Assembly: GCA_045542035.1 (NCBI GenBank)
Contig: JAZQKG010000013.1
Span: 12,102 to 76,101 of the forward strand
Reading direction: 5' to 3'
Source of the DNA: Eubacteriales bacterium
GTDB lineage: Bacteria; Bacillota; Clostridia; Oscillospirales; CAG-272
Length of the DNA: 64,000 nt
Shown: positions 7,646-37,623 of the stretch, piece by piece
Numbering within the stretch: the first letter of the stretch is position 1
Layout: every line of letters starts with the position of its first letter
Made by a program: the position numbers and the translations under genes
Notes under the pieces: generated by a model
Database searches by the model: none
Told to the model about the DNA's origin: nothing
The model's input: only the letters and a program-made list of their open reading frames with translations

Positions 7646-7676
7646 ATTATTATAAATTCAATTAAAATTTTTCTCT

Positions 7677-7690: not shown

Positions 7691-7693
7691 ATA

Positions 7694-7722
7694 TTGACAA
7701 TTTTTCTTGTTAATGCTATAAT
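7694..7722 (+). promoter_or_regulatory. consensus sigma-70 promoter (TTGACA-17-TATAAT) divergent from the XRE gene
   Basis: TTGACA 7694..7699, 17-nt spacer, TATAAT 7717..7722. Followed by SD AAAGGAG 7734..7740 and ATG 7748. Confidence 0.7.
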
Positions 7723-7732
7723 GGAATTCCAT
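7721..7732. promoter_or_regulatory. operator-like perfect 12-bp palindrome ATGGAATTCCAT
   Basis: Overlaps the last 2 nt of the -10 hexamer and the expected transcription start of the 7694 promoter. Confidence 0.6.
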
Positions 7733-7747
7733 GAAAGGAGCTTATAT

Positions 7748-8071
7748 ATGTTTAACAGAGCAGGTAATTTAAATGTAAAGAATTTAATTGATATATGTAT
7801 GAGGGATACATGCATATTTATACGTAAGCACAAGATGCTTTTGAAAAATGATTTTTTCAGAAATGTATAAACATCACTGATTGAATCGGAAATTCAGGAT
7901 ATAAAGAGCTTTACACATGATGACTCGGATAGCATACGAGAGGGTATTGAGATGGCTTATGATGCTGAAATTGAATGCAACGGGGAAACGTTTGAAAAAT
8001 ATGAGAAAATTGCTATAGATACTCTCAAATGGATTGAATACGTCAACAAAGAAATAGATAATATACAATGA
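7748..8071 (+). pseudogene. small acidic protein gene interrupted by an in-frame TAA (40 + 66 codons), family unknown
   Basis: ATG 7748 is followed by 40 codons and TAA at 7868..7870. The same frame then stays open with coding-like composition (LIESEIQDIKSFTHDDSDSIREGIEMAYDAEIECNGETFEKYEKIAIDTLKWIEYVNKEIDNIQ) to TGA 8069..8071. Confidence 0.5.
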
Positions 8072-8100
8072 ACTAAAGATTGCATATTATTTTTTATTAC

Positions 8101-8129
8101 TTGACAAATACTTTTTTGAGGTATATAAT
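8101..8129 (+). promoter_or_regulatory. consensus sigma-70 promoter for copA (TTGACA-17-TATAAT)
   Basis: TTGACA 8101..8106, 17-nt spacer, TATAAT 8124..8129. The palindrome TTATCGATAA at 8131..8140 follows directly. Confidence 0.7.
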
Positions 8130-8162
8130 TTTATCGATAATAAAATGTTTTCAGGTGAAAAA

Positions 8163-12936: not shown

Positions 12937-14868
12937 ATGGCATACACAATAGCACAGAAAATTATTAAAAATCATCTTGTTTCGGGCGAAATGAAGGTTG
13001 GTAGCGAAATAGGTCTCAGAATAGACCAGACGCTCACTCAGGACGCTACGGGTACTATGGCGTATCTGCAGTTTGAGGCGATGGGCTGTGAAAGAGTAAA
13101 AACCGAGCTTTCGGTTGCTTATATCGACCACAATACCCTGCAGGCGGGCTTTGAAAACGCAGACGACCATAGATACATACAGACGGTAACGAAGAAGCAC
13201 GGTATCCGTTTTTCCAGGCCCGGAAACGGTATCTGCCATCAGGTTCATCTCGAGCGCTTTGGCATTCCCGGGAAAACTCTTATAGGCTCTGACAGCCATA
13301 CTCCCACTGCGGGCGGAATCGGTATGCTCGGTATGGGCGCGGGCGGTCTTGACGTTGCCGTTGCCATGGGCGGAGGAACTTACTATATAACTATGCCCAA
13401 AATTATTCATATAAATCTCACGGGAAAGCTTCCTGATTACGTAGGAGCAAAGGATATAATTCTTGAGGTTCTCAGAATGCTCGGAGTTAAGGGCGGTGTC
13501 GGAGCTATCGTTGAATACGGCGGAGAGGGAATAAAGAATCTTTCCGTTCCTCAGCGCGCAACGATAACCAATATGGGAGCTGAGCTTGGAGCGACAAGCT
13601 CTATATTCCCGTCAGACGAGGTAACGCTTGAGTTTCTCAAGGCCGAGGGCAGAGAGGACGTGTTCGTTCCGCTTATGCCGGATGAGGACGCTGTGTACGA
13701 TGCGGAATATACTATCGATTTATCGAAGCTCTCCCCCCTTGCCGCTTGCCCTCATAGCCCCGATAACGTTAAACCCGTGTCAAATCTTGCGGGTATGAAA
13801 ATAAATCAGGTTTGTATCGGCTCATGCACGAATTCCTCAATGCTCGATATGCTTACCGTTGCGGCAATGCTTAAGGGAAAGACTGTTCATCCTGACGTAA
13901 GCCTTTCGATATCTCCCGGCTCAAAGCAGGTTTATACAATGCTTGCAGAGTGCGGCGCGCTTGCCGATCTTATAGCTGCCGGAGCAAGAATTCTTGAGTG
14001 CGCGTGCGGACCTTGTATCGGTATGGGATTTTCTCCGAAATCCGCAGGTGTAAGCCTTCGTACATTCAACCGCAACTTTCTTGCGAGAAGCGGCACCGCG
14101 GACGCGGAGGTGTATCTCGTTTCTCCCGAAACCGCGGCGGCATCCGCAGTAGCGGGCGTGTTCACCGACCCGACGACTCTCGGAGAAGCTCCTAAGATTG
14201 AAATTCCCTCGGTATTTACTGTTAATGATAATCTTATAGAAATGCCTGCGTCTCCCGAAGAAGCCGCGAATATTACGGTTGAGCGCGGACCTAATATCAA
14301 GCCAATTCCGACGGGAAAAGCTCCCGATAAGGATCTTGATACAAAGTTGATACTCAAGGTTGGAGATAACATTACGACCGACCATATAATGCCCGCGGGA
14401 ACCAAGGTTTTGCCTTACCGCTCAAACGTTCCTAAGCTTTCCGAGTTCTGCTTTACCGTTTGTGATAAGGATTTCCCCGAGCGCGCAAAGGCGGAGGGCG
14501 GCGGAGTTATCCTTGGCGGAGCAAATTACGGTCAGGGATCATCGCGCGAGCATGCTGCTCTCGTTCCTCTCTATCTTGGAATAAAGGCGGTTATCGCAAA
14601 GAGCTTTGCGAGAATCCATATAGCAAACCTTATTAACTTCGGTATCGTACCCATGACTCTTGAATGTGAAGATGATTACGAGAAAATCTCGGAGGGTGAC
14701 GGTATATATATCGAAAACTTCCGTGAGGCTATAGAAAAGTCGGACAAGGCGACTCTTGTAAATTCGAAAAACGGCGCACGTATAGGACTTAATCTTAATT
14801 TCACGCCTCGTCAGCGCGAAATTCTTCTTGCGGGCGGAACGCTTAACTATACGAAAGAAAGCAACTAA
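12937..14868 (+). CDS. aconitate hydratase
   Basis: 643 aa. Aconitase motifs IDQTLTQDATG, GSDSHT, CGPCIGMG and swivel-domain GANYGQGSSREHAA. Confidence 0.9.
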   Translation: MAYTIAQKIIKNHLVSGEMKVGSEIGLRIDQTLTQDATGTMAYLQFEAMGCERVKTELSVAYIDHNTLQAGFENADDHRYIQTVTKKHGIRFSRPGNGICHQVHLERFGIPGKTLIGSDSHTPTAGGIGMLGMGAGGLDVAVAMGGGTYYITMPKIIHINLTGKLPDYVGAKDIILEVLRMLGVKGGVGAIVEYGGEGIKNLSVPQRATITNMGAELGATSSIFPSDEVTLEFLKAEGREDVFVPLMPDEDAVYDAEYTIDLSKLSPLAACPHSPDNVKPVSNLAGMKINQVCIGSCTNSSMLDMLTVAAMLKGKTVHPDVSLSISPGSKQVYTMLAECGALADLIAAGARILECACGPCIGMGFSPKSAGVSLRTFNRNFLARSGTADAEVYLVSPETAAASAVAGVFTDPTTLGEAPKIEIPSVFTVNDNLIEMPASPEEAANITVERGPNIKPIPTGKAPDKDLDTKLILKVGDNITTDHIMPAGTKVLPYRSNVPKLSEFCFTVCDKDFPERAKAEGGGVILGGANYGQGSSREHAALVPLYLGIKAVIAKSFARIHIANLINFGIVPMTLECEDDYEKISEGDGIYIENFREAIEKSDKATLVNSKNGARIGLNLNFTPRQREILLAGGTLNYTKESN

Positions 14869-14920
14869 CAATTCTTTGCAATTATTGTGATGTGATTTAA
14901 TTCAGAAAGGAAAAAATAAA

Positions 14921-16087
14921 ATGAATTACGAACAAAACCTTGACGCCGCGTGCGCCAAATTCAGAAAAATTCTTGAGGATCAGCTCACCCGTGTGGAAGA
15001 TATGAAGTCTCAGGGTGACTTTACCGATTACGCTTCTCTTAAAACTATAAAGATAGGCGTTTGCGGCGGCGACGGTATCGGTCCGACTATTACTAAGGAA
15101 GCAAGACGCGTACTTGAATTTATGCTTTCCGACCTTGTTGAGTCAGGTAAAGTTGAGTTTACAACAATTGACGGACTTACTATTGAAAATAGAATTGTAG
15201 CCGGCAAAGCTATTCCCGACGACGTTATGGCAGAGCTTAAGGCGTGTGACATTATTCTTAAAGGACCGACAACAACTCCTCAAAAGGGTGACGGAATGCC
15301 TAATATTGAGTCTGCTAACGTTGCGATGCGTAAGGCACTTGACCTTTTTGCAAACATTCGCCCTGTTAAAGTTCCCGAGGAGGGAATTAACTGGACAATC
15401 TTCCGTGAGAATACCGAGGGAGGATACGCTGTAGGCTCTTCGGGATTTAACGTAACCGATGATCTTGCGGTGGACTTCACAATAACAACAAAGCAGGGCT
15501 CTGACAGAATAGCCCGCCTTGCGTACGATTACGCGAGGAAGAACGGCCGCACGAGAGTTTCTCTCGTAACCAAAGCTAACGTTATAAAAACGACCGACGG
15601 TAACTTCCTTGAGGATTGCCATAAGGTTGCTGACCTCTATCCCGAAATCACCACGGATGAGTGGTATGCCGATATTATGACAGCAAAGCTCGTTGACCAG
15701 AAGCGCCGCCGCGATTTCCAGGTGCTCCTGCTTCCCAACCTTTACGGTGATATAATCTCGGATGAGGCTGCTGAATTTCAGGGCGGTGTAGGTACTGCGG
15801 GATGCGCTAATATAGGTAAAAAGTACGCAATGTTCGAGGCTATTCACGGCTCTGCTCCGAGAATGGTCAGAGAGGGCAGAGCGCAGTACGCAGATCCTTG
15901 CTCAATGCTTCGCGCGGCAGTGATGCTTCTTTCTCATATAGGTTATCAGGACAGAGCCGATAAGCTCGAAAGAGCTCTTGACATCTGCTCCTTCGAGGAG
16001 AAAAAGCTCACCATCACCGGCAGACCCGGCGGAGCGACCTGTGAGGAATTCGGCAATTACGTAATGGAAACTCTTAAGAGCCTTTAA
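14921..16087 (+). CDS. icd: isocitrate dehydrogenase (isocitrate/isopropylmalate dehydrogenase family)
   Basis: 388 aa. Family motifs NLYGDIISDEAA and AIHGSAP. Last gene of the tricarboxylate operon. Confidence 0.8.
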   Translation: MNYEQNLDAACAKFRKILEDQLTRVEDMKSQGDFTDYASLKTIKIGVCGGDGIGPTITKEARRVLEFMLSDLVESGKVEFTTIDGLTIENRIVAGKAIPDDVMAELKACDIILKGPTTTPQKGDGMPNIESANVAMRKALDLFANIRPVKVPEEGINWTIFRENTEGGYAVGSSGFNVTDDLAVDFTITTKQGSDRIARLAYDYARKNGRTRVSLVTKANVIKTTDGNFLEDCHKVADLYPEITTDEWYADIMTAKLVDQKRRRDFQVLLLPNLYGDIISDEAAEFQGGVGTAGCANIGKKYAMFEAIHGSAPRMVREGRAQYADPCSMLRAAVMLLSHIGYQDRADKLERALDICSFEEKKLTITGRPGGATCEEFGNYVMETLKSL

Positions 16088-16100
16088 TTCTGAATTTTAA

Positions 16101-16134
16101 AATCGGTCTTATCATTTTGATGGACCGATTTTTA
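16101..16134 (+). terminator. rho-independent terminator after icd
   Basis: AATCGGTC 16101..16108 pairs with GACCGATT 16123..16130. A T-tract follows. Confidence 0.75.
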
Positions 16135-16153
16135 TTTATTTTTATTTAAGGTA

Positions 16154-16182
16154 TTGACAAGAGTTTAGAAGTATGCTAAAAT
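16154..16182 (+). promoter_or_regulatory. sigma-70 promoter of the lysine operon (TTGACA-17-TAAAAT)
   Basis: TTGACA 16154..16159, 17-nt spacer, TAAAAT 16177..16182. Confidence 0.7.
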
Positions 16183-16194
16183 ATTGTCATTAAT

Positions 16195-16366
16195 AAGAGA
16201 TAGAGGTGCATTTTGCGAAGAGTACCGCACAGAAAAAAGGCTGCCGGAGCCGTGCGGGAAAGGCGTGGGTGCCGAAGTAAGTGCCGTGGCGGGTACTTAG
16301 CTGGCGGTGCGGAGAATATCCGCCTCGTTGTCGTGTAATGCGAAGAGCTATACGGAGAGCTATCAA
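16195..16366 (+). promoter_or_regulatory. lysine riboswitch (L-box) aptamer
   Basis: Matches L-box hallmarks: GAUAGAGGUGC...AAGAGUA...GGGAAAGG...GUGCCGAAG...CUGG...GGAGAGCUAUC. P1 pairing is GAUAG/CUAUC. Lies upstream of dapA. Confidence 0.85.
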
Positions 16367-16389
16367 CCACACATGGTGTACGTTTTCTT

Positions 16390-16419
16390 GAGATGGCTTT
16401 TTGCGCCGTCTCTTTTTTG
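16390..16419 (+). terminator. riboswitch expression-platform terminator
   Basis: GAGATGGC 16390..16397 pairs with GCCGTCTC 16405..16412 (one G-U pair), followed by TTTTTT. Confidence 0.8.
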
Positions 16420-16459
16420 TTTATAAATACCGTTATAATACGGAAGAATGGAGAATAGT

Positions 16460-17344
16460 ATGAAAAACACAGTATTTCGCGGAGCTGCTACCGCAATAGT
16501 TACACCTCTTACAAAGGACGGAATTGATTATAATCAGTTTGCCCGCCTTATTGAATGGCAGATAGCCGAAGGAATTGACGCAATAGTCGCGGTTGGAACG
16601 ACGGGCGAGGGCTCGACTCTTACAGATAAAGAGCATAAGGAAGCAATAAAATTCTGCGTAGAGCAGGTTGCGGGCAGGGTACCCGTGATTGCAGGAACAG
16701 GCTCAAACGATACTCAGTATGCAATAGAGCTTACGCGCTACGCATGTGAGGTAGGCGCTGACGCGATGCTTCTCGTAACTCCCTATTACAATAAGGCTAC
16801 GCAAAAGGGAATGATAGAATCGTTTAAGGCTGTCGCTGATATATCTACAAAGCCCTGCATTCTCTATAACGTTCCGAGCCGTACCGGATGCAATTTGACA
16901 CCTGCGAGCGTTGTCGAGCTTGCTGAGCATCCGAATATCGTCGCTATAAAGGAAGCGTCGGGTAATATTTCTCAGATAGCTGAGATAGCGCATCTTGCAG
17001 GTGATAAGATAGATATTTATTCGGGTAACGACGACCAGATTGTTCCTATTCTTTCGCTTGGAGGTATCGGAGTAATTTCCGTGCTTTCCAATATCATGCC
17101 TAAGGCTACGTCGGAAATGTGCAAGAAGTTTTTTGACGGGGATGTTGCGGGGGCAAGAAAATTACAGCTTGACCTTCTTCCTCTCGTCAACGCTCTTTTC
17201 TGTGAGGTAAACCCGATTCCCGTAAAGGCTGCGGTTTCCGCAATGGGATATTGCGAGAATTATCTTCGTTTGCCGCTCACTCCAATGGAAAAGCAGAATG
17301 AGGAAAAGCTTATCGCTCTTATGAAGGAGCAGAATCTTATCTGA
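16460..17344 (+). CDS. dapA: 4-hydroxy-tetrahydrodipicolinate synthase
   Basis: ORF 16448..17344. ATG 16460 has better SD spacing (GGAGA). Motifs GTTGEGSTLT and the active-site Lys context IVAIKEASG. Confidence 0.9.
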   Translation: MKNTVFRGAATAIVTPLTKDGIDYNQFARLIEWQIAEGIDAIVAVGTTGEGSTLTDKEHKEAIKFCVEQVAGRVPVIAGTGSNDTQYAIELTRYACEVGADAMLLVTPYYNKATQKGMIESFKAVADISTKPCILYNVPSRTGCNLTPASVVELAEHPNIVAIKEASGNISQIAEIAHLAGDKIDIYSGNDDQIVPILSLGGIGVISVLSNIMPKATSEMCKKFFDGDVAGARKLQLDLLPLVNALFCEVNPIPVKAAVSAMGYCENYLRLPLTPMEKQNEEKLIALMKEQNLI

Positions 17345-17355
17345 CTAGGTGAATT

Positions 17356-18138
17356 ATGAATATATTACTTAACGGAATATGCGGTCATATGGGCCGCGAG
17401 GTTGTAAAGCTTGCCGAAATAGGATATCGCGGTGCGAACCTTGCAGTAGGTGTTGACCCTTCGGCTGACGGCAGCGAAGCGCCTCTCAGTGTCAAAAGCT
17501 TTAAGGATATTATCGAAATAAATAACGTGGATTGCATAGTGGATTTTTCGCATCACTCCTGCGTTTCGGAGCTTCTTGATTTTGCGGTTGAGAATAATAC
17601 TCCAACCGTTGTAGCTACGACCGGACACACACCGGAAGAAATAGCGAAAATTCATGAGGCGGCAAAGAATATACCGGTATTTTTCTCGGCGAATATGTCG
17701 CTTGGCGTCGCATTGCTCGTTGAGCTTGCGAAAACCGCTGCAAAATCTATGCCTGATGCGGAAATCGAGATAGTAGAGCAGCATCATAACAGAAAAATTG
17801 ACGCTCCGAGCGGTACGGCTCTTATGCTTGCGAACGCAATATGCGAGGTTCGTCCCGAAGCGTACATCAACTCGGGAAGAAGCGGACAGGGAAAGAGGAC
17901 GCCCGAGGAAATAGGTATTCACGCTATACGCATGGGAAATATTGTAGGCATTCATGAGGTTATAGTCGGAACTCAGAATCAGACTATTACTTTAAAGCAC
18001 GAAGCGCACAGCAGAGCCTTGTTCGCTGAGGGCGCTCTTGCCGCGGCGGCATTCCTTGTCGAATGCGACGCGGGACTTTACGACATGAAAAGTATTATCG
18101 GCGGAGTGAAAAAGAAGGACGCGGCTCTGTCCCACTAA
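17356..18138 (+). CDS. dapB: 4-hydroxy-tetrahydrodipicolinate reductase
   Basis: 260 aa. Motif EQHHNRKIDAPSGTA. Sits between dapA and ddh. Confidence 0.9.
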   Translation: MNILLNGICGHMGREVVKLAEIGYRGANLAVGVDPSADGSEAPLSVKSFKDIIEINNVDCIVDFSHHSCVSELLDFAVENNTPTVVATTGHTPEEIAKIHEAAKNIPVFFSANMSLGVALLVELAKTAAKSMPDAEIEIVEQHHNRKIDAPSGTALMLANAICEVRPEAYINSGRSGQGKRTPEEIGIHAIRMGNIVGIHEVIVGTQNQTITLKHEAHSRALFAEGALAAAAFLVECDAGLYDMKSIIGGVKKKDAALSH

Positions 18139-18201
18139 GATAATTTTAGAGTCAATCGCATATATTAATCTATTATACCAGTTGTTTTAGGAGAAAAAAC
18201 G

Positions 18202-19179
18202 ATGAGAATCGCTATATACGGTTATGGAAATCTCGGACGCGGGGTTGAATGCTCGACTAAGTACCACGATGATGCAGAGCTGGTCGCAATTTTCACAAGA
18301 CGTGCGCCCGAAAGCGTAAAAACGGTGCTTGGTGTGCCTGTTTATTTTGCAGAGCGTGTGCTTGAATTTAAGGATAAGATAGACGTGCTAATTCTTTGCG
18401 GAGGAAGCGCTACTGATCTTCCCGAAATGACGCCGGCTCTTGCTAAGCATTTTAACGTTATAGACAGCTACGATACGCACGCAACGATACCGAAGCACTT
18501 CGCTGCGGTTGACAAAGCTGCAACCGAGTCGGGACACGTGGCGCTTATCTCGGCAGGCTGGGATCCCGGACTGTTTTCTATAGCGAGAGTTTACGCGTCA
18601 TCGGTTTTGCCATGCGGCAAGGACTACACCTTTTGGGGCAGAGGAATAAGCCAGGGTCACTCGGATGCTATAAGACGTATAGACGGAGTTCTTGACGCGC
18701 GTCAGTACACTGTTCCCGTACCAGAGGCTATATCCGCGGTTCGCGCGGGTGAGAGTCCCGAGCTTACGACAAGACAAAAGCACCTTCGCGAGTGCTACGT
18801 TGTTCTTGCGGATGGCGCGGATGCCGAAACAGTAGAGCGGGAAATCAAAAACATGCCTAACTATTTTGCAGATTATGATACTACCGTTAATTTTATAACT
18901 CTTGACGAGCTCAGGAAAAACCACTCAGGAATGCCGCACGGGGGCTCTGTTATCAGAAACGGGAAGACCGGATTTGACGGAGAACATAATCATACAGTAG
19001 AATTTAAGCTTAATCTTGATTCAAACCCCGAGTTTACCGCGAGTGTGCTCGTCGCTTATGCGAGAGCTGTAGACAGACTTGCGAAAAAAGGCGACACGGG
19101 CTGTAAAACGGTGCTTGATATAGCTCCCGCGGAGCTTTCGCTTATGCCGCGCGAAGAGCTTTACGCTCATATGCTTTGA
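18202..19179 (+). CDS. ddh: meso-diaminopimelate D-dehydrogenase
   Basis: 325 aa. N-terminal Rossmann IAIYGYGNLGRG and GISQGHSDAIRRIDGV are typical of Ddh. Located in a dap/lys operon. Confidence 0.85.
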   Translation: MRIAIYGYGNLGRGVECSTKYHDDAELVAIFTRRAPESVKTVLGVPVYFAERVLEFKDKIDVLILCGGSATDLPEMTPALAKHFNVIDSYDTHATIPKHFAAVDKAATESGHVALISAGWDPGLFSIARVYASSVLPCGKDYTFWGRGISQGHSDAIRRIDGVLDARQYTVPVPEAISAVRAGESPELTTRQKHLRECYVVLADGADAETVEREIKNMPNYFADYDTTVNFITLDELRKNHSGMPHGGSVIRNGKTGFDGEHNHTVEFKLNLDSNPEFTASVLVAYARAVDRLAKKGDTGCKTVLDIAPAELSLMPREELYAHML

Positions 19180-19197
19180 TTATAACGAGAGGGAAAA

Positions 19198-20523
19198 ATG
19201 ATTTTAACTCAGGAAAAACAGGAATTTATATGTGAGAATATTTCTCGCAATGCCGATGGTGAGCTTTGCTTTGCGAGTATGCCGCTTTCACCTCTGGCGA
19301 AAAAATACGGAACTCCGCTCTATCTTTACGATGAGGAGCGAATCCGAGAAAGATGCCGCACCTATCTTAACGCAGTTAAGTCGGCGTTCGGTACGCGCGG
19401 TAAAGTTCTTTATGCTTCAAAGGCTGCGTCGTTTAAGAGGCTGTACGAGATAATGAAGGAAGAGGGAATGGGAATAGACGTCGTTTCCTGCGGTGAGATA
19501 TATACCGCAAGCGCGGCAGGATTTCCTCTTGAGAAATCTTATTTCCACTCAAATAATAAAACCGATGCCGATATAGAGTACGCAATTTCGCACGGGGTGG
19601 GATATTTCGTTGCGGATAACGAGGAGGAGCTTTACGCTATCGAACGTATTGCGGGTGAGCGCGGTATAAAGCAGCGCGTTCTGCTCCGTCTCACTCCCGG
19701 CATTGACCCGCACACGTACGCGGCTGTCGCTACGGGAAAGGTTGACTCGAAATTCGGCTCCGCGATAGAGACCGGTCAGGCAGAAAATATTACACGGATA
19801 GCGCTTTCGCTTCCTCACGTTTGCCTTCGCGGCTTCCACTGCCATGTCGGGTCGCAGGTCTTTGATTCAGACGTTTATATCCGCGCCGCAGAGGTTATGC
19901 TTGATTTCGTTGCGGATATGTATAAGAAGCTCGGTTACCTCGCGGATGAGCTTGATATTGGAGGCGGTTACGGAGTTCGCTATATTGCCGAGCAGCCTAC
20001 TATCGACATTGCGGCAAATATTGCCGAGGTGGCTGAGTTTATGCATAAGCATGCCGCCGAGCTTGGAATAACGCTCCCCGAAATAGCTTTTGAACCGGGA
20101 AGAAGCATCGTTGCCGATGCCGGACTTACCGTTTATACAGTCGGAACTGTAAAAAGAATACCCGGATATAAATCCTACGTTTCGGTGGACGGCGGAATGA
20201 CCGATAACCCGCGCTACGCGCTTTACGGCTCACCGTATACTCTGCTTACGGTAAACGAAAACAAAGATGCCGACACAGAAAACGTTTCGGTCGTTGGACG
20301 CTGCTGTGAGAGCGGAGACATTCTTCAGGAGAACGTTTCTATGCCCGAAAATATCACACGGGGCGACCTTATCGCCTGCTTGACAACCGGAGCTTACCAT
20401 TATTCGATGGCTTCAAATTATAACAGAATTCCAAGACCGCCGGTCGTTATGCTAAACGGAGGAGAGTCATATATCGCAGTCAAACGCGAGACCCCCGAGC
20501 ACGTCGCATCACTTGACTTATAA
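19198..20523 (+). CDS. lysA: diaminopimelate decarboxylase
   Basis: 441 aa fold-type III PLP enzyme. Motifs YASKA, HCHVGSQ, DIGGGYG, EPGRSIV and CESGD. Confidence 0.9.
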   Translation: MILTQEKQEFICENISRNADGELCFASMPLSPLAKKYGTPLYLYDEERIRERCRTYLNAVKSAFGTRGKVLYASKAASFKRLYEIMKEEGMGIDVVSCGEIYTASAAGFPLEKSYFHSNNKTDADIEYAISHGVGYFVADNEEELYAIERIAGERGIKQRVLLRLTPGIDPHTYAAVATGKVDSKFGSAIETGQAENITRIALSLPHVCLRGFHCHVGSQVFDSDVYIRAAEVMLDFVADMYKKLGYLADELDIGGGYGVRYIAEQPTIDIAANIAEVAEFMHKHAAELGITLPEIAFEPGRSIVADAGLTVYTVGTVKRIPGYKSYVSVDGGMTDNPRYALYGSPYTLLTVNENKDADTENVSVVGRCCESGDILQENVSMPENITRGDLIACLTTGAYHYSMASNYNRIPRPPVVMLNGGESYIAVKRETPEHVASLDL

Positions 20524-20607: not shown

Positions 20608-20636
20608 TTGAAAAATAGACATATATGTGTTATAAT
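20608..20636 (+). promoter_or_regulatory. sigma-70 promoter of the polysaccharide island operon (TTGAAA-17-TATAAT)
   Basis: TTGAAA 20608..20613, 17-nt spacer, TATAAT 20631..20636. Confidence 0.6.
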
Positions 20637-20691
20637 TGATATAAAATATATTAATTATATTTTTAATATGAAGACTTTCGAAACACCACCG

Positions 20692-20726
20692 CACCAACTC
20701 GAATAAATAAAGTTGGTGTATTTTTA
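20692..20726 (+). terminator. terminator-like hairpin inside the operon leader (possible attenuator/antitermination target)
   Basis: CACCAACT 20692..20699 pairs perfectly with AGTTGGTG 20711..20718 across an 11-nt loop, followed by TATTTTTAT. It lies between the promoter and the first gene. Confidence 0.5.
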
Positions 20727-20780
20727 TGCGGATTTCATCTGTTTCATTTGATTCAAAGTCATAAATAGGAGATGTTTTAT

Positions 20781-21617
20781 ATGTTTCTTAATTTGATGTA
20801 CATTACAAACAATCCAGAGGTAGCGTTAATAGCTGAGAAGAGCGGTGTAGATCGAATCATGATTGATCTTGAAACGCTTGGCAAAGAAGAACGCCAAAAG
20901 AACATGAATACGGTTAAGTCTCACCATACTGTGGATGATGTTCGAATTATTTCGAATATGTTGACAAGTTCTGAAATGCTTGTCAGAGTAAATCCCTGGA
21001 ATGAAACCTCTGTTGATGAGATAGAAGCCGTAATTGCTGCAGGTGCAGACATAATTATGTTACCAATGTGGAAAACAGTAGATGAGGTGAATTCATTTTT
21101 GAACACGGTAAATGAAAGAGTTCATACAACATTACTTCTTGAAACCAAAGAAGCCGTAGAGATTATTGATGAGATCATTGAAAACCCATTGCTTGACGAA
21201 ATACATATTGGGTTGAATGATCTACACCTTAGTTACGGATTGACCTTTATGTTTGAACTTCTTTCTAATGGTGTGGTTGAAAGTTTATGTCAAAAATTCA
21301 AGGCAAAAGGTATCCCATACGGGTTTGGAGGCATAGCTAGAATAGGTGAAGGAACACTTCCTGCTGATAATATTGTGATGGAACATTATCGACTTGGTTC
21401 ATCACGAGTGATCCTTTCGAGAAGTTTTTGTAATACAGATGAGATAAATGATTTAACGTCGGTCGAAACCATTTTTTTTGAAAATATGGCTCTTTTAAGG
21501 GCATATGAAAAATCTCTTATCACCAAATCGGATTTCGAATACAGCGAAAATACCGAAGCGGTAAAACGCTGCGTAGATATAATTGTCAATAAGATTAAGG
21601 AGAAAAAGGCGCAATGA
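20781..21617 (+). CDS. HpcH/HpaI-type aldolase / citrate-lyase-beta-like TIM-barrel enzyme
   Basis: ORF 20772..21617. ATG 20781 has better spacing to AGGAG. Family pattern: IMIDLE, LVRVNP, GADIIMLPMWKTVDEV, LLLETKEA, IHIGLNDL. Confidence 0.7.
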   Translation: MFLNLMYITNNPEVALIAEKSGVDRIMIDLETLGKEERQKNMNTVKSHHTVDDVRIISNMLTSSEMLVRVNPWNETSVDEIEAVIAAGADIIMLPMWKTVDEVNSFLNTVNERVHTTLLLETKEAVEIIDEIIENPLLDEIHIGLNDLHLSYGLTFMFELLSNGVVESLCQKFKAKGIPYGFGGIARIGEGTLPADNIVMEHYRLGSSRVILSRSFCNTDEINDLTSVETIFFENMALLRAYEKSLITKSDFEYSENTEAVKRCVDIIVNKIKEKKAQ

Positions 21618-22825
21618 ACAAAATGCAAATGAAACAGCTCACCGAACAAATCGGAGATGCTTTTTATATGCTTGAAAGCAAACAGTTCAGACAAAATTAT
21701 TTAGAATTGAAGTCTGAATTTGTAAATATATATCCTAACTTCAATATTGCATATTCATACAAAACAAACTATACGCCTAAGCTTTGCAAAATTGTCAATG
21801 AGCTTGGCGGATTTGCAGAAGTTGTTTCCGACATGGAAATGGAGATTGCACTTCGCATCGGTGTAGAGTCGAAAAACATTATCTGGAACGGTCCGTTCAA
21901 GAATGCTAAAAAGGTGGAACAGCTCCTTGTTATGGGAGGAACCGTAAACATCGATTCTGCTTACGAAATTGATATGATTGCAGAAATTGCAAAGAAATAT
22001 CCTAACAACAAACTGAATATCGGGGTTCGTTGCAATTTCGATGTGAATGACGGTGTAGTGTCGAGATTTGGTTTTGATATTGAATCTGAAGATTTTAACT
22101 GTGCGATGGCTTTGTTTGGAGAATTTAAAAATCTTTATTTAATTGGTTTACAGTGTCATTTTGCAACTCGTAGACTTGATACGTGGAAACCCCGTGCTGA
22201 AGGTATGCTTGCTTTGATAGATAAGCTTGGAATCGTTCCTGAACATATTGATTTAGGAGGAGGCTTGTTTGGGAAGATGGCTGATTCTCTCAAAGCGCAG
22301 TTTGACTCCGAGATACCTACATATAAGCAGTATGCGGAAGCTGTTGCTCCTGTTTTTGCCGATCATTTCAAGGATTCCGAAAACAAGCCGATGCTTTTAA
22401 TTGAACCTGGTAGTGCTCTTGTTGGTGACTGTATGAGATTTGCATCAAAAGTTGTGAATATAAAGAATGTACGTGGCAAAGCGATAGCAACGTTGCTTGG
22501 TAGCATTTATAACATCAATCCAACTCTAAATAAAAAGAATCCTCCTATTGAAGTATATCCAATGGGTGGTGAACAAAAAGAATATATAGATTTAGACTTT
22601 GGCGGCTTTACTTGTATTGAGTCTGACTATCTTTATCGCCATTTTGATGGAAAACTAGCCAAGGGAGATTTTGTGGTGTTTGGTAATGTTGGTTCTTATT
22701 CAGTCGTGTTGAAACCTCCGTTTATTTTGCCTAACTTCCCAATTATAGATATTTCCGAGGGTGAACTTGAAATTATCAAGCGTGGAGAAACATTTGATGA
22801 TTTGTTTCATACCTTTATGTTTTAA
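21614..22825 (+). CDS. PLP-dependent decarboxylase, Orn/DAP/Arg decarboxylase family (fold type III)
   Basis: 403 aa. Motifs YSYKTNY (PLP Lys), DLGGGLFG, IEPGSALVGD and GFTCIESD. The start overlaps the upstream stop (ATGA). Confidence 0.8.
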   Translation: MNKMQMKQLTEQIGDAFYMLESKQFRQNYLELKSEFVNIYPNFNIAYSYKTNYTPKLCKIVNELGGFAEVVSDMEMEIALRIGVESKNIIWNGPFKNAKKVEQLLVMGGTVNIDSAYEIDMIAEIAKKYPNNKLNIGVRCNFDVNDGVVSRFGFDIESEDFNCAMALFGEFKNLYLIGLQCHFATRRLDTWKPRAEGMLALIDKLGIVPEHIDLGGGLFGKMADSLKAQFDSEIPTYKQYAEAVAPVFADHFKDSENKPMLLIEPGSALVGDCMRFASKVVNIKNVRGKAIATLLGSIYNINPTLNKKNPPIEVYPMGGEQKEYIDLDFGGFTCIESDYLYRHFDGKLAKGDFVVFGNVGSYSVVLKPPFILPNFPIIDISEGELEIIKRGETFDDLFHTFMF

Positions 22826-22834
22826 GAGGTAAAT

Positions 22835-23548
22835 ATGTGGTATTTATTCAACAAGTTTTTGAAGCGTTTTTTTGATATTGTGCTTTGCTCGATAGCACTT
22901 ATTGTTTTAATGCCAATATGGCTGATTATTGCGATAGCTATTAAATGCGATAGCAATGGACCGGTATTGTTTGCGCAAGATAGGCGCACGAAAAACGGAA
23001 GACTTTTTAAAATGTATAAATTTCGCTCTATGGTTGTTAATGCTGAGAGCATGGGTGCCGGATTGTTTAATTATGAAAATGATCCTCGAGTAACAAAGAT
23101 TGGACGTTTTTTGAGAAACACTAGTCTTGATGAGTTGCCGCAGCTTTGGAACGTTGTAAAAGGAGATCTTTCTTTGGTGGGCCCCAGACCCTGCGTGTCT
23201 TATGAACTTGGAGATTTTGAGACGCTTAATAAAAAATACAAGAAACGATTCGAGGTTCGTGGTGGAATTACAGGACTTGCTCAAATAAAGGGCAGGAATG
23301 AAAACTCTTGGGATGAAAAAGTGACATACGACAATATTTACATAGAAAAGTTTAAAAAACAGGGATTTTGGTTAGACATAAAAATATTGGCGGGTACTGT
23401 TGCTAAAGTTTTTAAAAAACAAGATATATACGAAGAAAAGGTAGATGATAATATGAATGATGCAGAAGCTGCAAAATTTGCGGAAGAAGAGATTATTCGT
23501 ATAGCGCATTTGCCTGACGAAGAAGTTGAAACAATTGAAGCGAAATAA
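22835..23548 (+). CDS. small (PglC-like) undecaprenyl-phosphate sugar phosphotransferase, initiating enzyme
   Basis: 237 aa. One N-terminal hydrophobic helix, then the bacterial sugar transferase core ([36 protein letters not shown]). Confidence 0.85.
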
Positions 23549-23558
23549 GAGGTAAAAA

Positions 23559-24485
23559 ATGAAAACAGATGTAGCTAATAGATTTATATGGTACAAGGGT
23601 GAAATTATTAATGTTAATGATGCGAAGATCAATATTCTTGCACCCACTGCTCAATTTGGCTTGAACGTGTTTGAAGGAATTCCTTGTTATTGGAACGAGG
23701 ACGAAAAACAACTTTATGCTTTTCGTTTAGATGACCATTATGATCGTTTGCTTCGTTCTGCAAAATTGATTCAAATCAATTGCCCATATACTAAAGATGA
23801 TTTCAAGAAGGCACTTGTGGATGTAATTAAAGCTAACGAGTACGATGAAAATCTTTCAGTGCGTCAAACGTTATTTGTTGATGGCTTTGGTTCTTGGGGT
23901 TCTGCAGAACCCGTGGATATGTTCGTTGCACCTATTCCCAAAGGAAGGACAAGCTCGGAGTATAATAAAAAAGGACTTAACTGTTGCGTTACTTCTTGGA
24001 GAAGAATCTCGGATACGACGCTTTCTCCGAGGATCAAGTGTGGTGCAAACTATATAAATAGCCGTGTCGGTCAGAGAGAGGCGCTTCGCAACGGATACGA
24101 TACTTGTATTTTTTTGAATGAAGTAGGAAAAGTGGCGGAAGGTCCGGGCTCATGTTTCTTTATGGTCGTAAATGGTACTTTGGTCACTCCAATGCTTACA
24201 GACAGCGTTCTTGAAAGTATTACAAGAGATACGATTATTAAACTTGCTAAGACTATCGGTATTTCTGTCATTGAAAGAACAATAGATAGAACAGAACTTT
24301 ATACTTGTGACGAAGCGTTCCTTTGCGGTTCTGCGATGGAAGTTACCCCTGTTCTTTCTATTGATAAATATGTGGTTGGCAATGGAGAGGCAGGTAAGAT
24401 AACTACGGAACTGCACAAGGCATATCTTGATGTGGCAAAAGGAAAAAATGATAATTTGAAAGATTGGATAACACCGATTTATTGA
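23559..24485 (+). CDS. class IV (BCAT / D-amino-acid) aminotransferase
   Basis: 308 aa fold-type IV pattern: VFEGIPCY, RLDDHYDRLLRSAKL, KCGANYINS, EGPGSCFFMV, LESITRDT. Confidence 0.8.
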   Translation: MKTDVANRFIWYKGEIINVNDAKINILAPTAQFGLNVFEGIPCYWNEDEKQLYAFRLDDHYDRLLRSAKLIQINCPYTKDDFKKALVDVIKANEYDENLSVRQTLFVDGFGSWGSAEPVDMFVAPIPKGRTSSEYNKKGLNCCVTSWRRISDTTLSPRIKCGANYINSRVGQREALRNGYDTCIFLNEVGKVAEGPGSCFFMVVNGTLVTPMLTDSVLESITRDTIIKLAKTIGISVIERTIDRTELYTCDEAFLCGSAMEVTPVLSIDKYVVGNGEAGKITTELHKAYLDVAKGKNDNLKDWITPIY

Positions 24486-24506: not shown

Positions 24507-25274
24507 ATGGAAAGAACATACGTTGAGGGGCTTGTTTCGGTAATTATGCCGATTTACAATGCAGAAAAATATCTTGATAATACATTAGAATCAATTTTTA
24601 GTCAGGATTATGAAAATATTGAGATTGTACTTGTGGATGATTGTTCAAAAGACGGCTCTGCAACTGTTATTATGAATCTTCAAAAAACTCATCCGGAAAT
24701 CGTATATTTTCTTCAGGAAAAGAATATGGGGGCAGGGGCAGCTCGTAATAAAGCTTTGGAACTTGCAAAAGGTCAATACGTTGCTTTCCTTGATAGTGAT
24801 GACCTTTGGCTTCCCGGTAAAATTAGCAGACAAATTGAATTGATGAGGTCAACGAATTCACCGTTCTCCTATACAGCCATTGAAATGATGGACGAAAAGA
24901 GTGAAACAATTAAAGGGAAACGTAATATCAAAGAAACTTGCGACTATAAGTATCTTTTGCACAACACTATTATTGCAACATCATCAGTTGTAATTGATAG
25001 AACAGTGCTTGGAGATTTTCGTATGCCATTGCGCCGAGGGGGTCAGGACTATGCAACTTGGCTCATGCTTCTACGTGACGGTGCTGTAGCTCGTGGTATT
25101 AACGAAACTCTTGTAAGATATCGTGTTGCTAGTGGTTCGCTCTCATCTAATAAATTTAAGAGTATCAAACAAGTTTGGGAAATACAAACTCAAGATGAAG
25201 GTATAAACAAAATCAGCGTAGCTTTCCATGTGCTTTGCTTCGGGTTCAACGCCTTCAAAAAATATTTTTTATAA
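24507..25274 (+). CDS. glycosyltransferase family 2
   Basis: 255 aa GT-A fold. Motifs VSVIMPIYNAEKYL, VDDCSKDGS and DxD in FLDSDD. Confidence 0.85.
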   Translation: MERTYVEGLVSVIMPIYNAEKYLDNTLESIFSQDYENIEIVLVDDCSKDGSATVIMNLQKTHPEIVYFLQEKNMGAGAARNKALELAKGQYVAFLDSDDLWLPGKISRQIELMRSTNSPFSYTAIEMMDEKSETIKGKRNIKETCDYKYLLHNTIIATSSVVIDRTVLGDFRMPLRRGGQDYATWLMLLRDGAVARGINETLVRYRVASGSLSSNKFKSIKQVWEIQTQDEGINKISVAFHVLCFGFNAFKKYFL

Positions 25275-25306
25275 AAATCAAGAATAGCACACTCGAAAGG
25301 GAAATT

Positions 25307-25840
25307 ATGGAACAATACGTTGTTTATAGGTACGATAAATCATCGGGATGTAAAACAAATTTTGGTGGTAATGGTAAAGCTTATACCTACAAAAAATTTC
25401 TATGGGGCACTAAAGATAAAATATTTAAGTCAATTCTATTTGCTATATCTGCGAGAGGTAAACAGAAGATACTTTGTGTGGAAAACGAAAAGAAGGAAAT
25501 CATACATTATTCCTTCGTAATACCTTATTGCATAAAATTTCAATTCATGAAAAAGGACGATTATTGCATTGGTCCGTGCTGGACACACCCTGATTATCGA
25601 GGCAAAGGAATTTACGGAAATGTTCTTGACTATGTAAGTACAACTATAACTTTGGAAAATAATAACGCAGATTGTTATGTTTTAATACGAAAAGCAAACT
25701 TTGCATCTACAAACGGCATAAAAAAAGCAAAGTATATTCCCGTTGGCACAATTAAAAAAACGAAAATATTAAAACATTACAAAACTGTTTCTTGGTATAA
25801 TAGGGTGCCTGTTAATAGTGAAGGAGTTGATACTATATGA
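25307..25840 (+). CDS. GNAT-type N-acetyltransferase
   Basis: ORF 25235..25840 starts on a TTG inside the GT2 tail. ATG 25307 (MEQYVVYRY) is preferred. GNAT motif A is THPDYRGKGIYGNVL. Confidence 0.65.
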   Translation: MEQYVVYRYDKSSGCKTNFGGNGKAYTYKKFLWGTKDKIFKSILFAISARGKQKILCVENEKKEIIHYSFVIPYCIKFQFMKKDDYCIGPCWTHPDYRGKGIYGNVLDYVSTTITLENNNADCYVLIRKANFASTNGIKKAKYIPVGTIKKTKILKHYKTVSWYNRVPVNSEGVDTI

Positions 25841-28784: not shown

Positions 28785-29948
28785 ATGAGGATATTGTTGA
28801 TCGTTGATGTTATTGATAATGGCGGAGTAGGTGTCGTTCTAAGAAATCTTTTGCATAACATTGAAACAAGCAAATATGAGATAGATGTATTGTCTTTTGA
28901 AGAAAAAAAAGAATATGAATCTCAGTTACCTAATACGATTCAAATAAGGAATGTATATAAGAGAAACCCTATGAAACACAGGGATAAGTACATTCGCTAC
29001 ATTTACAGCCTTTTACGCGAAATTTGTCCTAAGTGGGCTATTAGACGCTTTATTGTTAAAAAGAAATACGACTTAGCCATTGACTTCAAGGGAAATAATT
29101 TGAACGTACTGACAGCTAATAATTGCCCGAAGATATTTTGGAGCCATAAAGATTTTTCACCGATAACAAACCCGATTGAGAAAAAGGTCATTGAAGAATA
29201 TTCAAAGACAAGAAGTGGCGCAGAAAAAGAAAAACTGTTTTTGAGAAACTTGCGTATGATAGATGGGGTTGTTTGCATTTCAGAGGCTTGCAAAAAGGCT
29301 TTTATTGAGAGATGGGATTATCCAGAAGATAAAATCCATGTACTTTTGAATGTTCTTGATGTGAATGAAATAAAAAGCAAATCAATGGAAAAAGTAGAGT
29401 ATTCCAAAACTAGCAAGTTTACATTTTGCTGTATGTCCAGAATATCATCAGGAAAAGGTATTGAACGTCTTCTTAATTGCGTTAGCGTTCTTAATGGTAT
29501 GGGTTACTCCTTCGTGCTGAATATTGTTGGAGGTGGGGATACATTGGATGAAATGATATCTCTTGCAAAGTCTATGAATCTTGATAACGTGGCTTTCTTT
29601 GGCAATAAAGACAATCCCTATCCATATGTTGTTCAGTCTGACGTGTTTGTGTATCCATCTGAGACAGAAGCGTATGGCATGGCGGCATGTGAAGCCTTGA
29701 TTTTGGGCAAACCGATTATTACGACTAAAACAGCATCGGTTCCGGAGATTTTCGGAAACAGTGAATATGGACTCGTAGTGGAAAATTGTGAACAAGAAAT
29801 ACTTGCAGGTATGAAACGCTTTTTAGATGATCCAGAATTGGTAGATTTCTATCATACGCAAGCGGAAAAACGCTTAGAATATTTTGATGTTCAATCCCGG
29901 GCCAAAGCGGTAGAGGAGTATATAGATGAAATTGCAAAGAATACTTGA
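28785..29948 (+). CDS. glycosyltransferase family 4 (GT-B)
   Basis: 387 aa. GT-B E-x7-E region YPSETEAYGMAACEALILGKPIITT. Confidence 0.8.
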   Translation: MRILLIVDVIDNGGVGVVLRNLLHNIETSKYEIDVLSFEEKKEYESQLPNTIQIRNVYKRNPMKHRDKYIRYIYSLLREICPKWAIRRFIVKKKYDLAIDFKGNNLNVLTANNCPKIFWSHKDFSPITNPIEKKVIEEYSKTRSGAEKEKLFLRNLRMIDGVVCISEACKKAFIERWDYPEDKIHVLLNVLDVNEIKSKSMEKVEYSKTSKFTFCCMSRISSGKGIERLLNCVSVLNGMGYSFVLNIVGGGDTLDEMISLAKSMNLDNVAFFGNKDNPYPYVVQSDVFVYPSETEAYGMAACEALILGKPIITTKTASVPEIFGNSEYGLVVENCEQEILAGMKRFLDDPELVDFYHTQAEKRLEYFDVQSRAKAVEEYIDEIAKNT

Positions 29949-30840
29949 GCATTATCGCGAGGAAATGAATTATGAAGTTTTGTGGGATATAATGCTTTTT
30001 GATACAGAAAATTCAAATAATAAAGTTGTTGTAAAAGAACCTGCCAGCAGATTTTGGGGGGCAGATCCGTTTCTTTTTGCTCAGGATGGTCGTAAATATC
30101 TATTCTATGAGCAATATGATAGGAAAAGAAAGAAAGGCGTAATTGCATATCGAGAAATAACTAACAATGGAAGCTACACTTTATCAGAACCATACGTTAT
30201 AATTGAAGAAGATTTCCATATGTCATTCCCTTATATATTCCAAAGGAACGACGATATATATATGATACCCGAGACATCAAGTGTTGGTGAAATTAGGCTT
30301 TATCGAGCTGAAGGCTTTCCGAACCAATGGGTTTACGAAAAAACAATTGTTTCGAATTTCCCGGGAGTAGATACAATCGTACTGCAAAATAATGAGAAGT
30401 TGATTTTACACAGTTCGGTAGGCGATTCTTGCAATGTTGAAAATTATCTACTGGAATGTGACAAAGACTTCTCATGTGTACGAAAATATAAGATTAAAGA
30501 TTATTCCGAACGAGGTAATCGCAACGCCGGCAGAATAGTAAAAAGAAATGGGAAAGAATATAGAATTGGACAAGATTGCAGTGGCAAGGAATATGGTAAA
30601 GGTTTAATAGCATACGAAATTACATCCTCAAGATCAGAGGTGGAGAAGGATGTGTTTTCGTATGATAGATTTCTGGAAACCGATGAATACTGTGGCGTAC
30701 ATACCTATAATGAATGTAATGGAACGAGTGTTATTGACCTGAAATATTTGATGCCCAAGCCAATATACAAAAAAATTGGCTTTATTGTAGTGAAAGCGTG
30801 GGGAGCAATTAAAAGAAAGGTAAGAAGAATTTTCAAATGA
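29926..30840 (+). CDS. conserved-looking soluble protein of unknown function (WGADPF motif, possibly beta-propeller-like)
   Basis: 304 aa. SD GAGGAG lies 7 nt before the ATG. Overlaps the upstream gene by 23 nt. Motifs WGADPFLFAQDG..YLFYEQY and MIPETS. No confident family call. Confidence 0.6.
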   Translation: MKLQRILEHYREEMNYEVLWDIMLFDTENSNNKVVVKEPASRFWGADPFLFAQDGRKYLFYEQYDRKRKKGVIAYREITNNGSYTLSEPYVIIEEDFHMSFPYIFQRNDDIYMIPETSSVGEIRLYRAEGFPNQWVYEKTIVSNFPGVDTIVLQNNEKLILHSSVGDSCNVENYLLECDKDFSCVRKYKIKDYSERGNRNAGRIVKRNGKEYRIGQDCSGKEYGKGLIAYEITSSRSEVEKDVFSYDRFLETDEYCGVHTYNECNGTSVIDLKYLMPKPIYKKIGFIVVKAWGAIKRKVRRIFK

Positions 30841-36273: not shown

Positions 36274-36293
36274 AAAGTGGTGTTTGTTAGGAG

Positions 36294-37622: not shown

Positions 37623-37623
37623 A

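Follow-up and report, generated by a model that had tools for sequence, protein, structure and literature searches.

A five-gene cassette was analysed in a 64,000-nucleotide stretch of DNA from a Eubacteriales bacterium (assembly GCA_045542035.1, contig JAZQKG010000013.1, positions 12,102 to 76,101; this whole stretch is called the window, and positions are counted from its first letter). The cassette encodes, in order, an HpcH/HpaI-like TIM barrel (ALD), a fold-III pyridoxal phosphate (PLP) decarboxylase (DEC), a small phosphoglycosyltransferase (PGT), a class-IV aminotransferase (AT4) and a glycosyltransferase (GT2). It is best explained as the "amine" version, class A below, of a modular cassette that starts the synthesis of capsule-type polysaccharides in gut Clostridia. 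There is strong contextual evidence that ALD makes or installs a 2-oxo acid, and that this acid is then reduced, transaminated, or transaminated and decarboxylated. An earlier note on this DNA had assigned the first four island genes (20781-24485) to these families, and the Pfam results agreed with it. The motifs it quoted are present in the translations (IMIDLE, LVRVNP, LLLETKEA and IGLNDL in ALD; YSYKTNY and EPGSALV in DEC), as is the ATGA overlap of the ALD and DEC genes at 21614-21617. The block had to be enlarged, since GT2, found directly after AT4 in 47 of the 49 class A loci, is its fifth constant member.

The relatives of ALD number more than 8000 among 90%-identity clusters, many of them 75-88% identical to it and almost all unnamed, and 1460 among 50%-identity representatives. 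A pattern scan of one genome per species found ALD in 267 species genomes. The hosts are mostly gut and rumen Clostridia (Oscillospiraceae, Christensenellaceae, Acutalibacteraceae and Lachnospiraceae, including Blautia schinkii), and further hosts are Eubacterium callanderi, Faecalibacterium, Erysipelotrichaceae and one metagenome-assembled genome of Fibrobacter. Gene neighbourhoods were compared in 82 non-redundant loci of different species (80 fetched loci, earlier ones and the window; handles beginning with L) by clustering all open reading frames (ORFs), which gave counts of 76 for ALD, 67 for PGT, 55 for AT4, 51 for DEC and 47 for GT2. The order ALD-DEC-PGT-AT4-GT2 was found in 49 of the 82 loci, and a cassette order beyond chance is confirmed. 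The upstream genes vary by species, with ribosomal genes, homoserine and aspartate kinase genes, OTCase, DprA, fucose isomerase or cpsC/D/B in this position, and therefore the cassette is the true head of a mobile polysaccharide locus. Downstream of the cassette the genes differ between loci, in a manner that looks serotype-specific. At 16114-17013 of L006, a few genes 3' of the cassette, lies a gene for a D-glucuronyl C5-epimerase-like protein (C5-epim_C, 1.1e-38), and its cluster (c24) is present in L006 and five other class A loci.

The gene families, their order, the alternative tailoring enzymes and the fusions were observed directly. Apart from the 49 class A loci, where ALD partners AT4 and DEC, nine loci have AT4 only (class B), five carry an Ldh_2-family dehydrogenase directly after PGT (class C), and two carry a D-isomer 2-hydroxyacid dehydrogenase (class C'). 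Seven loci have no keto-acid enzyme; some of these hold a DegT/PglD bacillosamine-type set and one an Asn-synthase-like gene. The remainder consists of four loci with DEC that end before the AT4 position and six that are cut right after ALD. DEC fragments were seen between ALD and PGT in two loci, L022 and L030. In L022 the fragment is a 127-aa remnant (1836-2219, N-terminal PLP domain only) placed between ALD and a divergent PGT, and the situation in L030 is similar. Such remnants look like relics of a class A cassette in a locus now using a 2-hydroxyacid dehydrogenase.

Fusions join the same partners in one chain. ALD and DEC form a single polypeptide in L078, L082 and the database protein P0136, and ALD is fused to Ldh_2 in P0129 and to 2-Hacid_dh in P0165 and P0175. 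Because three unrelated families of C2-carbonyl enzymes occupy equivalent positions and ALD is fused to Ldh_2, 2-Hacid_dh and DEC, ALD appears to make or install a 2-oxo acid. The functional link among the three enzymes that the earlier note had assumed is upheld by the ALD-DEC polypeptides, the ALD-reductase fusions and the interchangeable reductases at the same position. Its series from 2-oxo acid to amino acid to amine is also supported by this context. Its free non-sugar product was not supported, as the fusions to sugar enzymes speak against it.

ALD is fused to PGT in P0125, P0131 and P0133, to PGT and a GT4 glycosyltransferase in P0143 (PGT-GT4-ALD), to GT4 in P0140, to a receiver domain (REC) in P0126, and to the catalytic domain of a CapD-type 4,6-dehydratase in P0191. 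In L038, L059, L071, L076 and P0121 it is fused to a transmembrane plus CoA_binding_3 (TM+CoA_binding_3) module, elsewhere the carrier of CapD/PglF dehydratases and of PGTs of the WbaP type. Three loci (L042, L048 and L049) have AT4 fused to GT2. In 14 loci the gene immediately upstream of ALD is of the CapD type, and in C. thermocellum Cthe_2650 (CapD) adjoins Cthe_2649 (HpcH/HpaI aldolase). Since ALD or AT4 is fused to PGT, GT4, a CapD domain, the membrane module and GT2, and no ligase is conserved, the substrate is probably a nucleotide- or lipid-linked sugar. The median PGT identity to the window copy was 74% in class A, 55% in class B, 45% in class C and 44% in loci without a keto-acid enzyme, whereas the median ALD identity was 62-65% in every class, and the next glycosyltransferase after PGT also changed with the tailoring class. 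Because PGT identity tracks the class and ALD identity does not, these results suggested that the tailored product is handled by PGT or the second transferase. Among other observations, L071 also encodes TM+CoA_binding_3-DegT aminotransferase and VanZ-like-PGT fusions (6654-8291 and 10898-11965), and a PF14907 (NTP_transf_5) nucleotidyltransferase recurs near ALD in L057 (10853-12034), L060, L086 (18106-19290) and L035 (19912-20823). In two Christensenellaceae loci ALD is followed by the PF14907 gene and then Spo0A, with no obvious polysaccharide genes.

The assignment of ALD itself is a distant one. It matched Pfam HpcH_HpaI (PF03328) at 1.6e-14 and 54.2 bits (cut-off 25) over residues 12-158 only, and it scored 16-26 bits with the NCBIfam equivalogs HpaI, GarL, RhmA and CitE, none of whose cut-offs (369-623) was reached. 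Its best solved relatives are HpaI-type aldolases (E ~0.003). With the AlphaFold model (predicted local distance difference test score, 86), Foldseek returned HpcH/YfaU aldolases and pyruvate kinases about equally well, at a TM-score of ~0.6 and 11-19% identity. ALD shares with HpaI, YfaU/RhmA and GarL the TIM-barrel fold, the aligned Glu/Asp metal ligands and the catalytic Arg: HpaI D42, E44, R70, E149 and D175 are kept in the alignment as D29, E31, R69, E121 and D147, and E121 and D147 (metal ligands) as well as R69 (the enolate-stabilising Arg) are invariant in both the Clostridial and the proteobacterial branches. It differs from these enzymes in its identity of 15-19% to solved aldolases and in having Thr (D29-L-E31-T32) in place of His45 of the HpaI DxEH motif, the proposed base for the aldol step. 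Further differences are an inserted invariant basic loop after this motif (G34-K35, R38-Q39, K40, K46-S47 and H49) and two long helices at the C-terminus. The last two strands, beta7 and beta8, carry a Gly-rich GFGGIA and an LSRSF, respectively. ALD is thus predicted to be a divergent, distant member of the HpcH/HpaI family, an Mg-dependent TIM barrel of the pyruvate/phosphoenolpyruvate (PEP) superfamily with putative aldolase activity. Annotations in the sources are generic ("aldolase/citrate lyase family protein", "RhmA"), and none of the cassette proteins has a specific name there. Its gene could start at 20772 or 20781, and the latter is credible because AGGAG is present at 20767-20771 and the resulting 278-aa product equals the database protein P0001.

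AT4 matched Pfam Aminotran_4 at 2e-47 and passed the models for IlvE-type branched-chain aminotransferases (BCATs), with 305.5 bits versus 279 for PRK06606 and 286.7 versus 245.6 for TIGR01122. With the D-amino-acid transaminase model TIGR01121 it reached 109.6 bits, below the cut-off of 277.45. The best solved relatives are non-canonical BCATs (6GKR, 244 bits). Across 55 family members the catalytic Lys159, Tyr164 and Glu193 and the carboxylate-binding Arg97 are invariant, and nearly all carry the pocket changes Y31F, R40P, Y95S, V109S and W126K/R relative to E. coli BCAT, whose numbering is used here with the E. coli sequence verified against 1I1K. The pocket is therefore predicted to be opened and, with Lys or Arg at the W126 position, cationic, and we propose that AT4 would convert a 2-oxo group to a 2-amino group.

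DEC matched Orn_Arg_deC_N at 1.1e-25 and Orn_DAP_Arg_deC at 7.3e-06. Its K50, H182, G215-217 (the GGG phosphate loop) and C334 are invariant in 49 family members, and the EPG motif is also kept. DEC is not LysA: it gave 138 bits with the lysA model TIGR01048 (cut-off 297.9) and has S267 where the window's own LysA has R302, the arginine of EPGR. The nearest solved structures are FslC, an N-citrylornithine decarboxylase (7KH2, 95 bits), and diaminopimelate (DAP) decarboxylases (90 bits), followed by BtrK. We propose from these assignments that DEC would decarboxylate a side-chain amino acid to a primary amine. The idea that the two PLP enzymes act through a D-configured centre lost its footing, given the IlvE-type scores of AT4 and, in DEC, the score below the lysA cut-off and the Ser at the EPGR arginine.

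The remaining two enzymes belong to sugar-chain assembly. PGT consists of a single Bac_transf domain (PF02397, 2.9e-66, 223 bits) with an acidic C-terminal tail of ~40 aa. Its similarity to PglC (139 bits) is about that to the WbaP catalytic domain (136 bits), scores which do not distinguish donor specificity, and its SLDELPQL aligned with the Asp-Glu dyad region of PglC. By its family, PGT is predicted to be the initiating enzyme of sugar-chain assembly. GT2 matched Glycos_transf_2 at 3.5e-36, its solved relatives are ordinary inverting GT2s, and it presumably carries out the second sugar transfer.

Our tentative proposal, which we rate somewhat short of an even chance, is that ALD adds pyruvate to a nucleotide-linked 4-keto sugar, and that AT4 and DEC convert the resulting side chain to a 2-aminoethyl group. 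Which electrophile is used, that the product is a branched sugar and in what order the steps follow are inferred here. As a metal-dependent enzyme, ALD would link the pyruvate (or PEP) C3 with the carbonyl group of a 4-keto-6-deoxy sugar in nucleotide-activated form. That sugar would be made by a CapD/PglF-type dehydratase, which this genome would have to provide in trans. A C-branched sugar would result, and its side chain would be -CH2-CO-COOH, as in shewanellose. AT4 would then turn the 2-oxo group of the side chain into a leucine-like, gamma-branched amino acid, DEC would remove the carboxyl to leave a 2-aminoethyl branch, PGT would transfer the finished sugar phosphate to undecaprenyl phosphate, and GT2 would add the second sugar. 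A gamma-branched 2-oxo acid is a suitable substrate for a BCAT scaffold, and class II pyruvate aldolases are known to catalyse aldol reactions with ketones as acceptors. The DEC relatives FslC and BtrK decarboxylate conjugated amino acids, and by analogy this may count for a sugar-linked substrate.

A second line of evidence came from Proteobacteria. ALD homologues in Rhodobacterales and Gammaproteobacteria are 37-39% identical and share every invariant motif, and they lie in a DegT-AsnB-ALD-NeuB block inside legionaminic-acid-type loci. Around this block are genes for a NeuC-like epimerase, a CMP-nonulosonate synthetase, a PglD-like acetyltransferase, a small PGT and a flippase, together with amidino-forming PseA-like/HisH/HisF genes. 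Shewanellose, 2-acetamido-2,6-dideoxy-4-C-(3'-carboxamide-2',2'-dihydroxypropyl)-D-galactose, accompanies an 8-epilegionaminic acid derivative in the Shewanella putrefaciens A6 polysaccharide (PMC4052302). In formal terms it corresponds to pyruvate added through C3, in an aldol reaction, to C4 of a 4-keto-6-deoxy-N-acetylhexosamine, with the carboxyl amidated. Together, ALD and AsnB should give precisely this structure, as AsnB could form the carboxamide, and the legionaminic-type genes and small PGT of the proteobacterial loci fit the reported sugar pair. Among the Clostridial loci, L076 likewise has an Asn-synthase-like gene paired with ALD. In shewanellose the side chain is amidated, whereas in the window it would be transaminated and decarboxylated, giving a sugar that is not known. 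No description of the shewanellose biosynthetic genes was found in the literature. The proteobacterial loci encode no 4,6-dehydratase although a legionaminic-type pathway requires one, so supply of this enzyme in trans would not be unusual. As a separate observation, one proteobacterial locus (L089, plasmid NZ_CP049039.1) has, ~14 kb from ALD, a gene for a ~1030-aa PEP/pyruvate-binding-domain protein (13465-16563, plasmid positions 97464-100562) adjoining a phosphocholine cytidylyltransferase-family gene.

Several findings weigh against the keto-sugar route. The 64-kb window encodes no 4,6-dehydratase and has no CapD/PglF-like gene, and a CapD-like gene is nearby in just 11 of the 49 class A loci by clustering; we therefore rate the proposal short of even. 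A CapD-like match of at least 60% identity lay within 10 kb in only ~16 of the searched loci, and many class A loci are preceded by housekeeping genes. Where ALD is fused to TM+CoA_binding_3, it stands in place of the dehydratase domain and does not join it. Seven loci have ALD without any keto-acid enzyme, and L057 and L060, both from Christensenellaceae, do not look like polysaccharide loci. The aldol chemistry of ALD is unproven because of the low identity to solved aldolases and the equal fold match to pyruvate kinases. The shewanellose link is circumstantial, since it draws on the gene content of other bacteria and not on the genome of the producing strain. We also know of no polysaccharide with an aminoethyl-branched sugar.

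The same genes could instead make a free small molecule, as the earlier note had proposed. The partner of pyruvate in the ALD reaction would be a free aldehyde, perhaps phosphorylated, and the product a 4-hydroxy-2-oxo acid. From this, AT4 and DEC would form a free amino alcohol or amine, and a separate enzyme would attach it, for example the FemAB-like enzyme through an amide on glucuronate. The family assignments and the 2-oxo-acid logic fit such a route, and from a reading of TIM-barrel phosphate sites the GFGGIA, LSRSF and basic loop of ALD would suit a phosphorylated aldehyde. In biocatalysis, an HpcH-type aldolase combined with a BCAT is an established cascade to gamma-hydroxy amino acids. 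The window does contain both Ugd and a FemAB-like gene, in the same gene run as the earlier note had said, but the attachment step was not borne out by the comparison of loci. None of the other 48 class A loci has a FemAB-like gene, which otherwise occurs in some DEC-less loci only; Ugd is found in 3-4 of the 49, and no ligase or transferase is conserved with the cassette. The ALD-PGT/GT4/CapD/membrane-module and AT4-GT2 fusions would be hard to explain, and both PGT and the next glycosyltransferase differ from one tailoring class to another. We regard this route as unlikely.

Two further explanations give ALD a different role. It might act generally or in regulation at initiation, either through a PEP-dependent phosphotransfer feeding or pulling the reaction of PGT or as a metabolite-sensing partner of PGT, with AT4, DEC and the reductases being serotype-specific and not fed by ALD. 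Its equal conservation whatever the PGT type and tailoring set would agree with this, as would its occurrence with bacillosamine-type DegT/PglD/PGT sets and in loci without a keto-acid enzyme, the REC-ALD and TM+CoA_binding_3-ALD fusions, and the fold match to pyruvate kinases as good as that to aldolases. The GLNDL of ALD also resembles the G-[ST]-N-D-L of PEP-utilising enzymes. We consider this reading improbable, for ALD is fused directly to DEC and to two unrelated 2-oxo-acid reductases and adjoined by three 2-oxo-acid enzyme families, all of which would become coincidences because its keto acid would then be a mere by-product. Alternatively, ALD could be an analogue of PEP mutase that forms phosphonopyruvate from PEP, pulled by AT4 to phosphonoalanine and by DEC to 2-aminoethylphosphonate, or by the reductases to phosphonolactate, for a phosphonate decoration. 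The superfamily is the same, P0122 gives a sub-threshold PEP_mutase match, AT4 has a cationic pocket residue, and ALD is always coupled, sometimes fused, to a transaminase or reductase. Such coupling, which pulls an unfavourable equilibrium, is the known pattern at PEP mutase branch points. For comparison, see bioRxiv 10.1101/2021.04.07.438883. This is the reading to which we give least credence, and we think it very improbable: the best Pfam match of ALD is HpcH_HpaI and no EDKxxxxxNS-type signature was seen in it, no cytidylyltransferase or phosphonate transferase is conserved, LicD in 21 loci is explained by CDP-ribitol/CDP-glycerol genes, and the partnership with AsnB in Proteobacteria does not fit.

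Other candidate routes were examined and rejected. A link to DAP or lysine is not supported, as the adjacency of dapA-dapB-ddh-lysA to the cassette is coincidental and cassettes of other species follow ribosomal, homoserine, OTCase, DprA, fucose-isomerase or cpsBCD genes. Citrate chemistry of the SbnG/SbnH type was dismissed because the solved structures that ALD matched at E up to 1 did not include SbnG and because an NRPS-independent siderophore (NIS) synthetase is lacking. The full set for a pantothenate-like pathway (PanB-like ALD, BCAT, Asp decarboxylase and ketopantoate reductase) was found in no locus class, and PanC is missing. A sulfolactate-cysteate-taurine route needs Ldh_2 upstream of AT4, and class A has no Ldh_2. 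Transfer of an amino-alcohol phosphate by LicD was discarded as LicD is present in only 21 loci, where the checked neighbours were CDP-ribitol-type genes (IspD-like plus short-chain dehydrogenase/reductase, SDR) or a TagD-like cytidylyltransferase. A GalE-type SDR as the source of the keto sugar was present only in L002/L003.

The cassette opens an island of roughly 20.6-42 kb with a GC content of ~0.33-0.39, compared with 0.45-0.49 in the flanks, and all island genes form a co-directional run on the + strand (Table 1). Directly upstream, at 16448-20523, lie dapA, dapB, the gene for meso-DAP dehydrogenase and a genuine lysA (19198-20523; 419 bits with TIGR01048). Because these genes adjoin the island, its DAP-decarboxylase paralogue is easily taken for part of lysine synthesis.

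Table 1. Positions of the cassette genes and adjoining features in the window
Feature	Position	Strand	Length	Basis or remark
Promoter-like site, TTGAAA / 17-nt spacer / TATAAT with upstream TG	20608-20636	+		11/12 consensus matches, sequence match only
ALD, HpcH/HpaI-like TIM barrel	20781-21617	+	278 aa	Pfam HpcH_HpaI
DEC, fold-III PLP decarboxylase	21614-22825	+	403 aa	Pfam PF02784 and PF00278
PGT, small monotopic PglC-type phosphoglycosyltransferase	22835-23548	+	237 aa	Pfam Bac_transf
AT4, class-IV BCAT-like aminotransferase	23559-24485	+	308 aa	Pfam PF01063
GT2 glycosyltransferase	24507-25274	+	255 aa	Pfam PF00535
Small ORF after GT2, start uncertain, possible accessory	25235-25840	+		No Pfam match

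The small ORF after GT2 has a weak GNAT-like NCBIfam match (E 0.006), and its cluster (c43) follows GT2 in L023, L024 and L084 only among the 82 loci, so that its membership of the cassette is doubtful. Between the promoter-like site and the ALD start, the leader (20643-20785) contains a 9-bp hairpin, CACCAACUC ... AAGUUGGUG, with an 11-nt loop, followed by UAUUUUUAU. This hairpin may be the lysA terminator or an attenuator. The folding z-score of the leader was only -1.8, it had no Rfam match, and a riboswitch was not found in it.

The other products of the island are GT4 enzymes, a Wzy-like polymerase, a hexapeptide acetyltransferase and a MurJ-type flippase, together with the FemAB-like protein (Acetyltransf_6, 30837-31883) and Ugd (38295-39533). 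Adjoining Ugd at 35275-38274, genes for a GHMP kinase, an NTP-transferase-HAD phosphatase fusion and a SIS isomerase form a compact heptose-nucleotide pathway. Among the glycosyltransferases, an ORF at 29926-30840 matched GINT1_N, the N-terminal domain of eukaryotic glucosamine inositolphosphorylceramide transferase 1, at 1.2e-35, with a weak GH43 match. Two tandem ORFs of ~290 aa each (39718-40593 and 40597-41469) close the island; neither has a Pfam match, and they are weakly similar to each other (20% identity, E 0.005).

A tailoring set around a small PGT is known from PglFED/PglC, while the enzyme families and the predicted chemistry found here are not. In PglF-PglE-PglD/PglC, which makes UDP-diNAc-bacillosamine, and in CapD-CapN-CapM of S. 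aureus, a glycan locus likewise begins with a short tailoring pathway around a small monotopic PGT. Both systems start from the product of a membrane-anchored 4,6-dehydratase, whose TM+CoA_binding_3 module is borrowed by ALD. Their tailoring enzymes are an SDR, a DegT-family aminotransferase and a hexapeptide acetyltransferase, in contrast to the HpcH-like barrel, fold-IV transaminase and fold-III decarboxylase of the cassette. In the Campylobacter jejuni capsule, the aminotransferase Cj1437 and the decarboxylase Cj1436 make serinol phosphate and ethanolamine phosphate, so that dedicated PLP enzymes of a capsule locus also make an amine for the polymer there. However, these have other folds and substrates and no aldolase-like partner, and an ATP-grasp ligase attaches their product, a phosphorylated amine in free form, whereas no such ligase travels with the cassette. 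SbnG, an HpcH-like citrate synthase, and SbnH are a precedent for an HpcH-like gene beside a fold-III decarboxylase gene. The cassette differs from the FslC, SbnH and BtrK systems in lacking a NIS synthetase or carrier protein and in its context of glycan initiation. Literature searches found no description of this gene combination, in keeping with the earlier note, which had not recognised the three enzymes as a described polysaccharide-modification route.

Polysaccharide loci headed by this cassette occur in at least 267 species, most of them uncultured Clostridia of the gut and rumen. If the keto-sugar model is true, it would represent a new route to C-branched sugars by a metal-dependent pyruvate aldolase; the known routes use thiamine diphosphate or S-adenosylmethionine enzymes. 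It would also provide the first candidate genes for shewanellose. More broadly, and with a little less assurance than the route itself, ALD might found a family of nucleotide-sugar C-branching pyruvate aldolases whose 2-oxo-acid side chain is diversified by interchangeable modules, being left unchanged, amidated, reduced, transaminated, or transaminated and decarboxylated. In that case an aminoethyl-branched initiating sugar would be made from the window and from about 50 of the 82 loci, and a positive charge would stand at the base of each capsule repeat unit in hundreds of gut Clostridia. This would explain the "BCAT" and "DAP decarboxylase" genes inside capsule loci, which would have been mis-annotated as amino-acid metabolism. 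All five cassette genes are small, and some of their hosts are in culture. Zwitterionic polysaccharides are modulators of host immunity, and amine-bearing repeat units in commensal capsules, with Ugd as a source of negative charge in the window, may possibly be relevant to the host.

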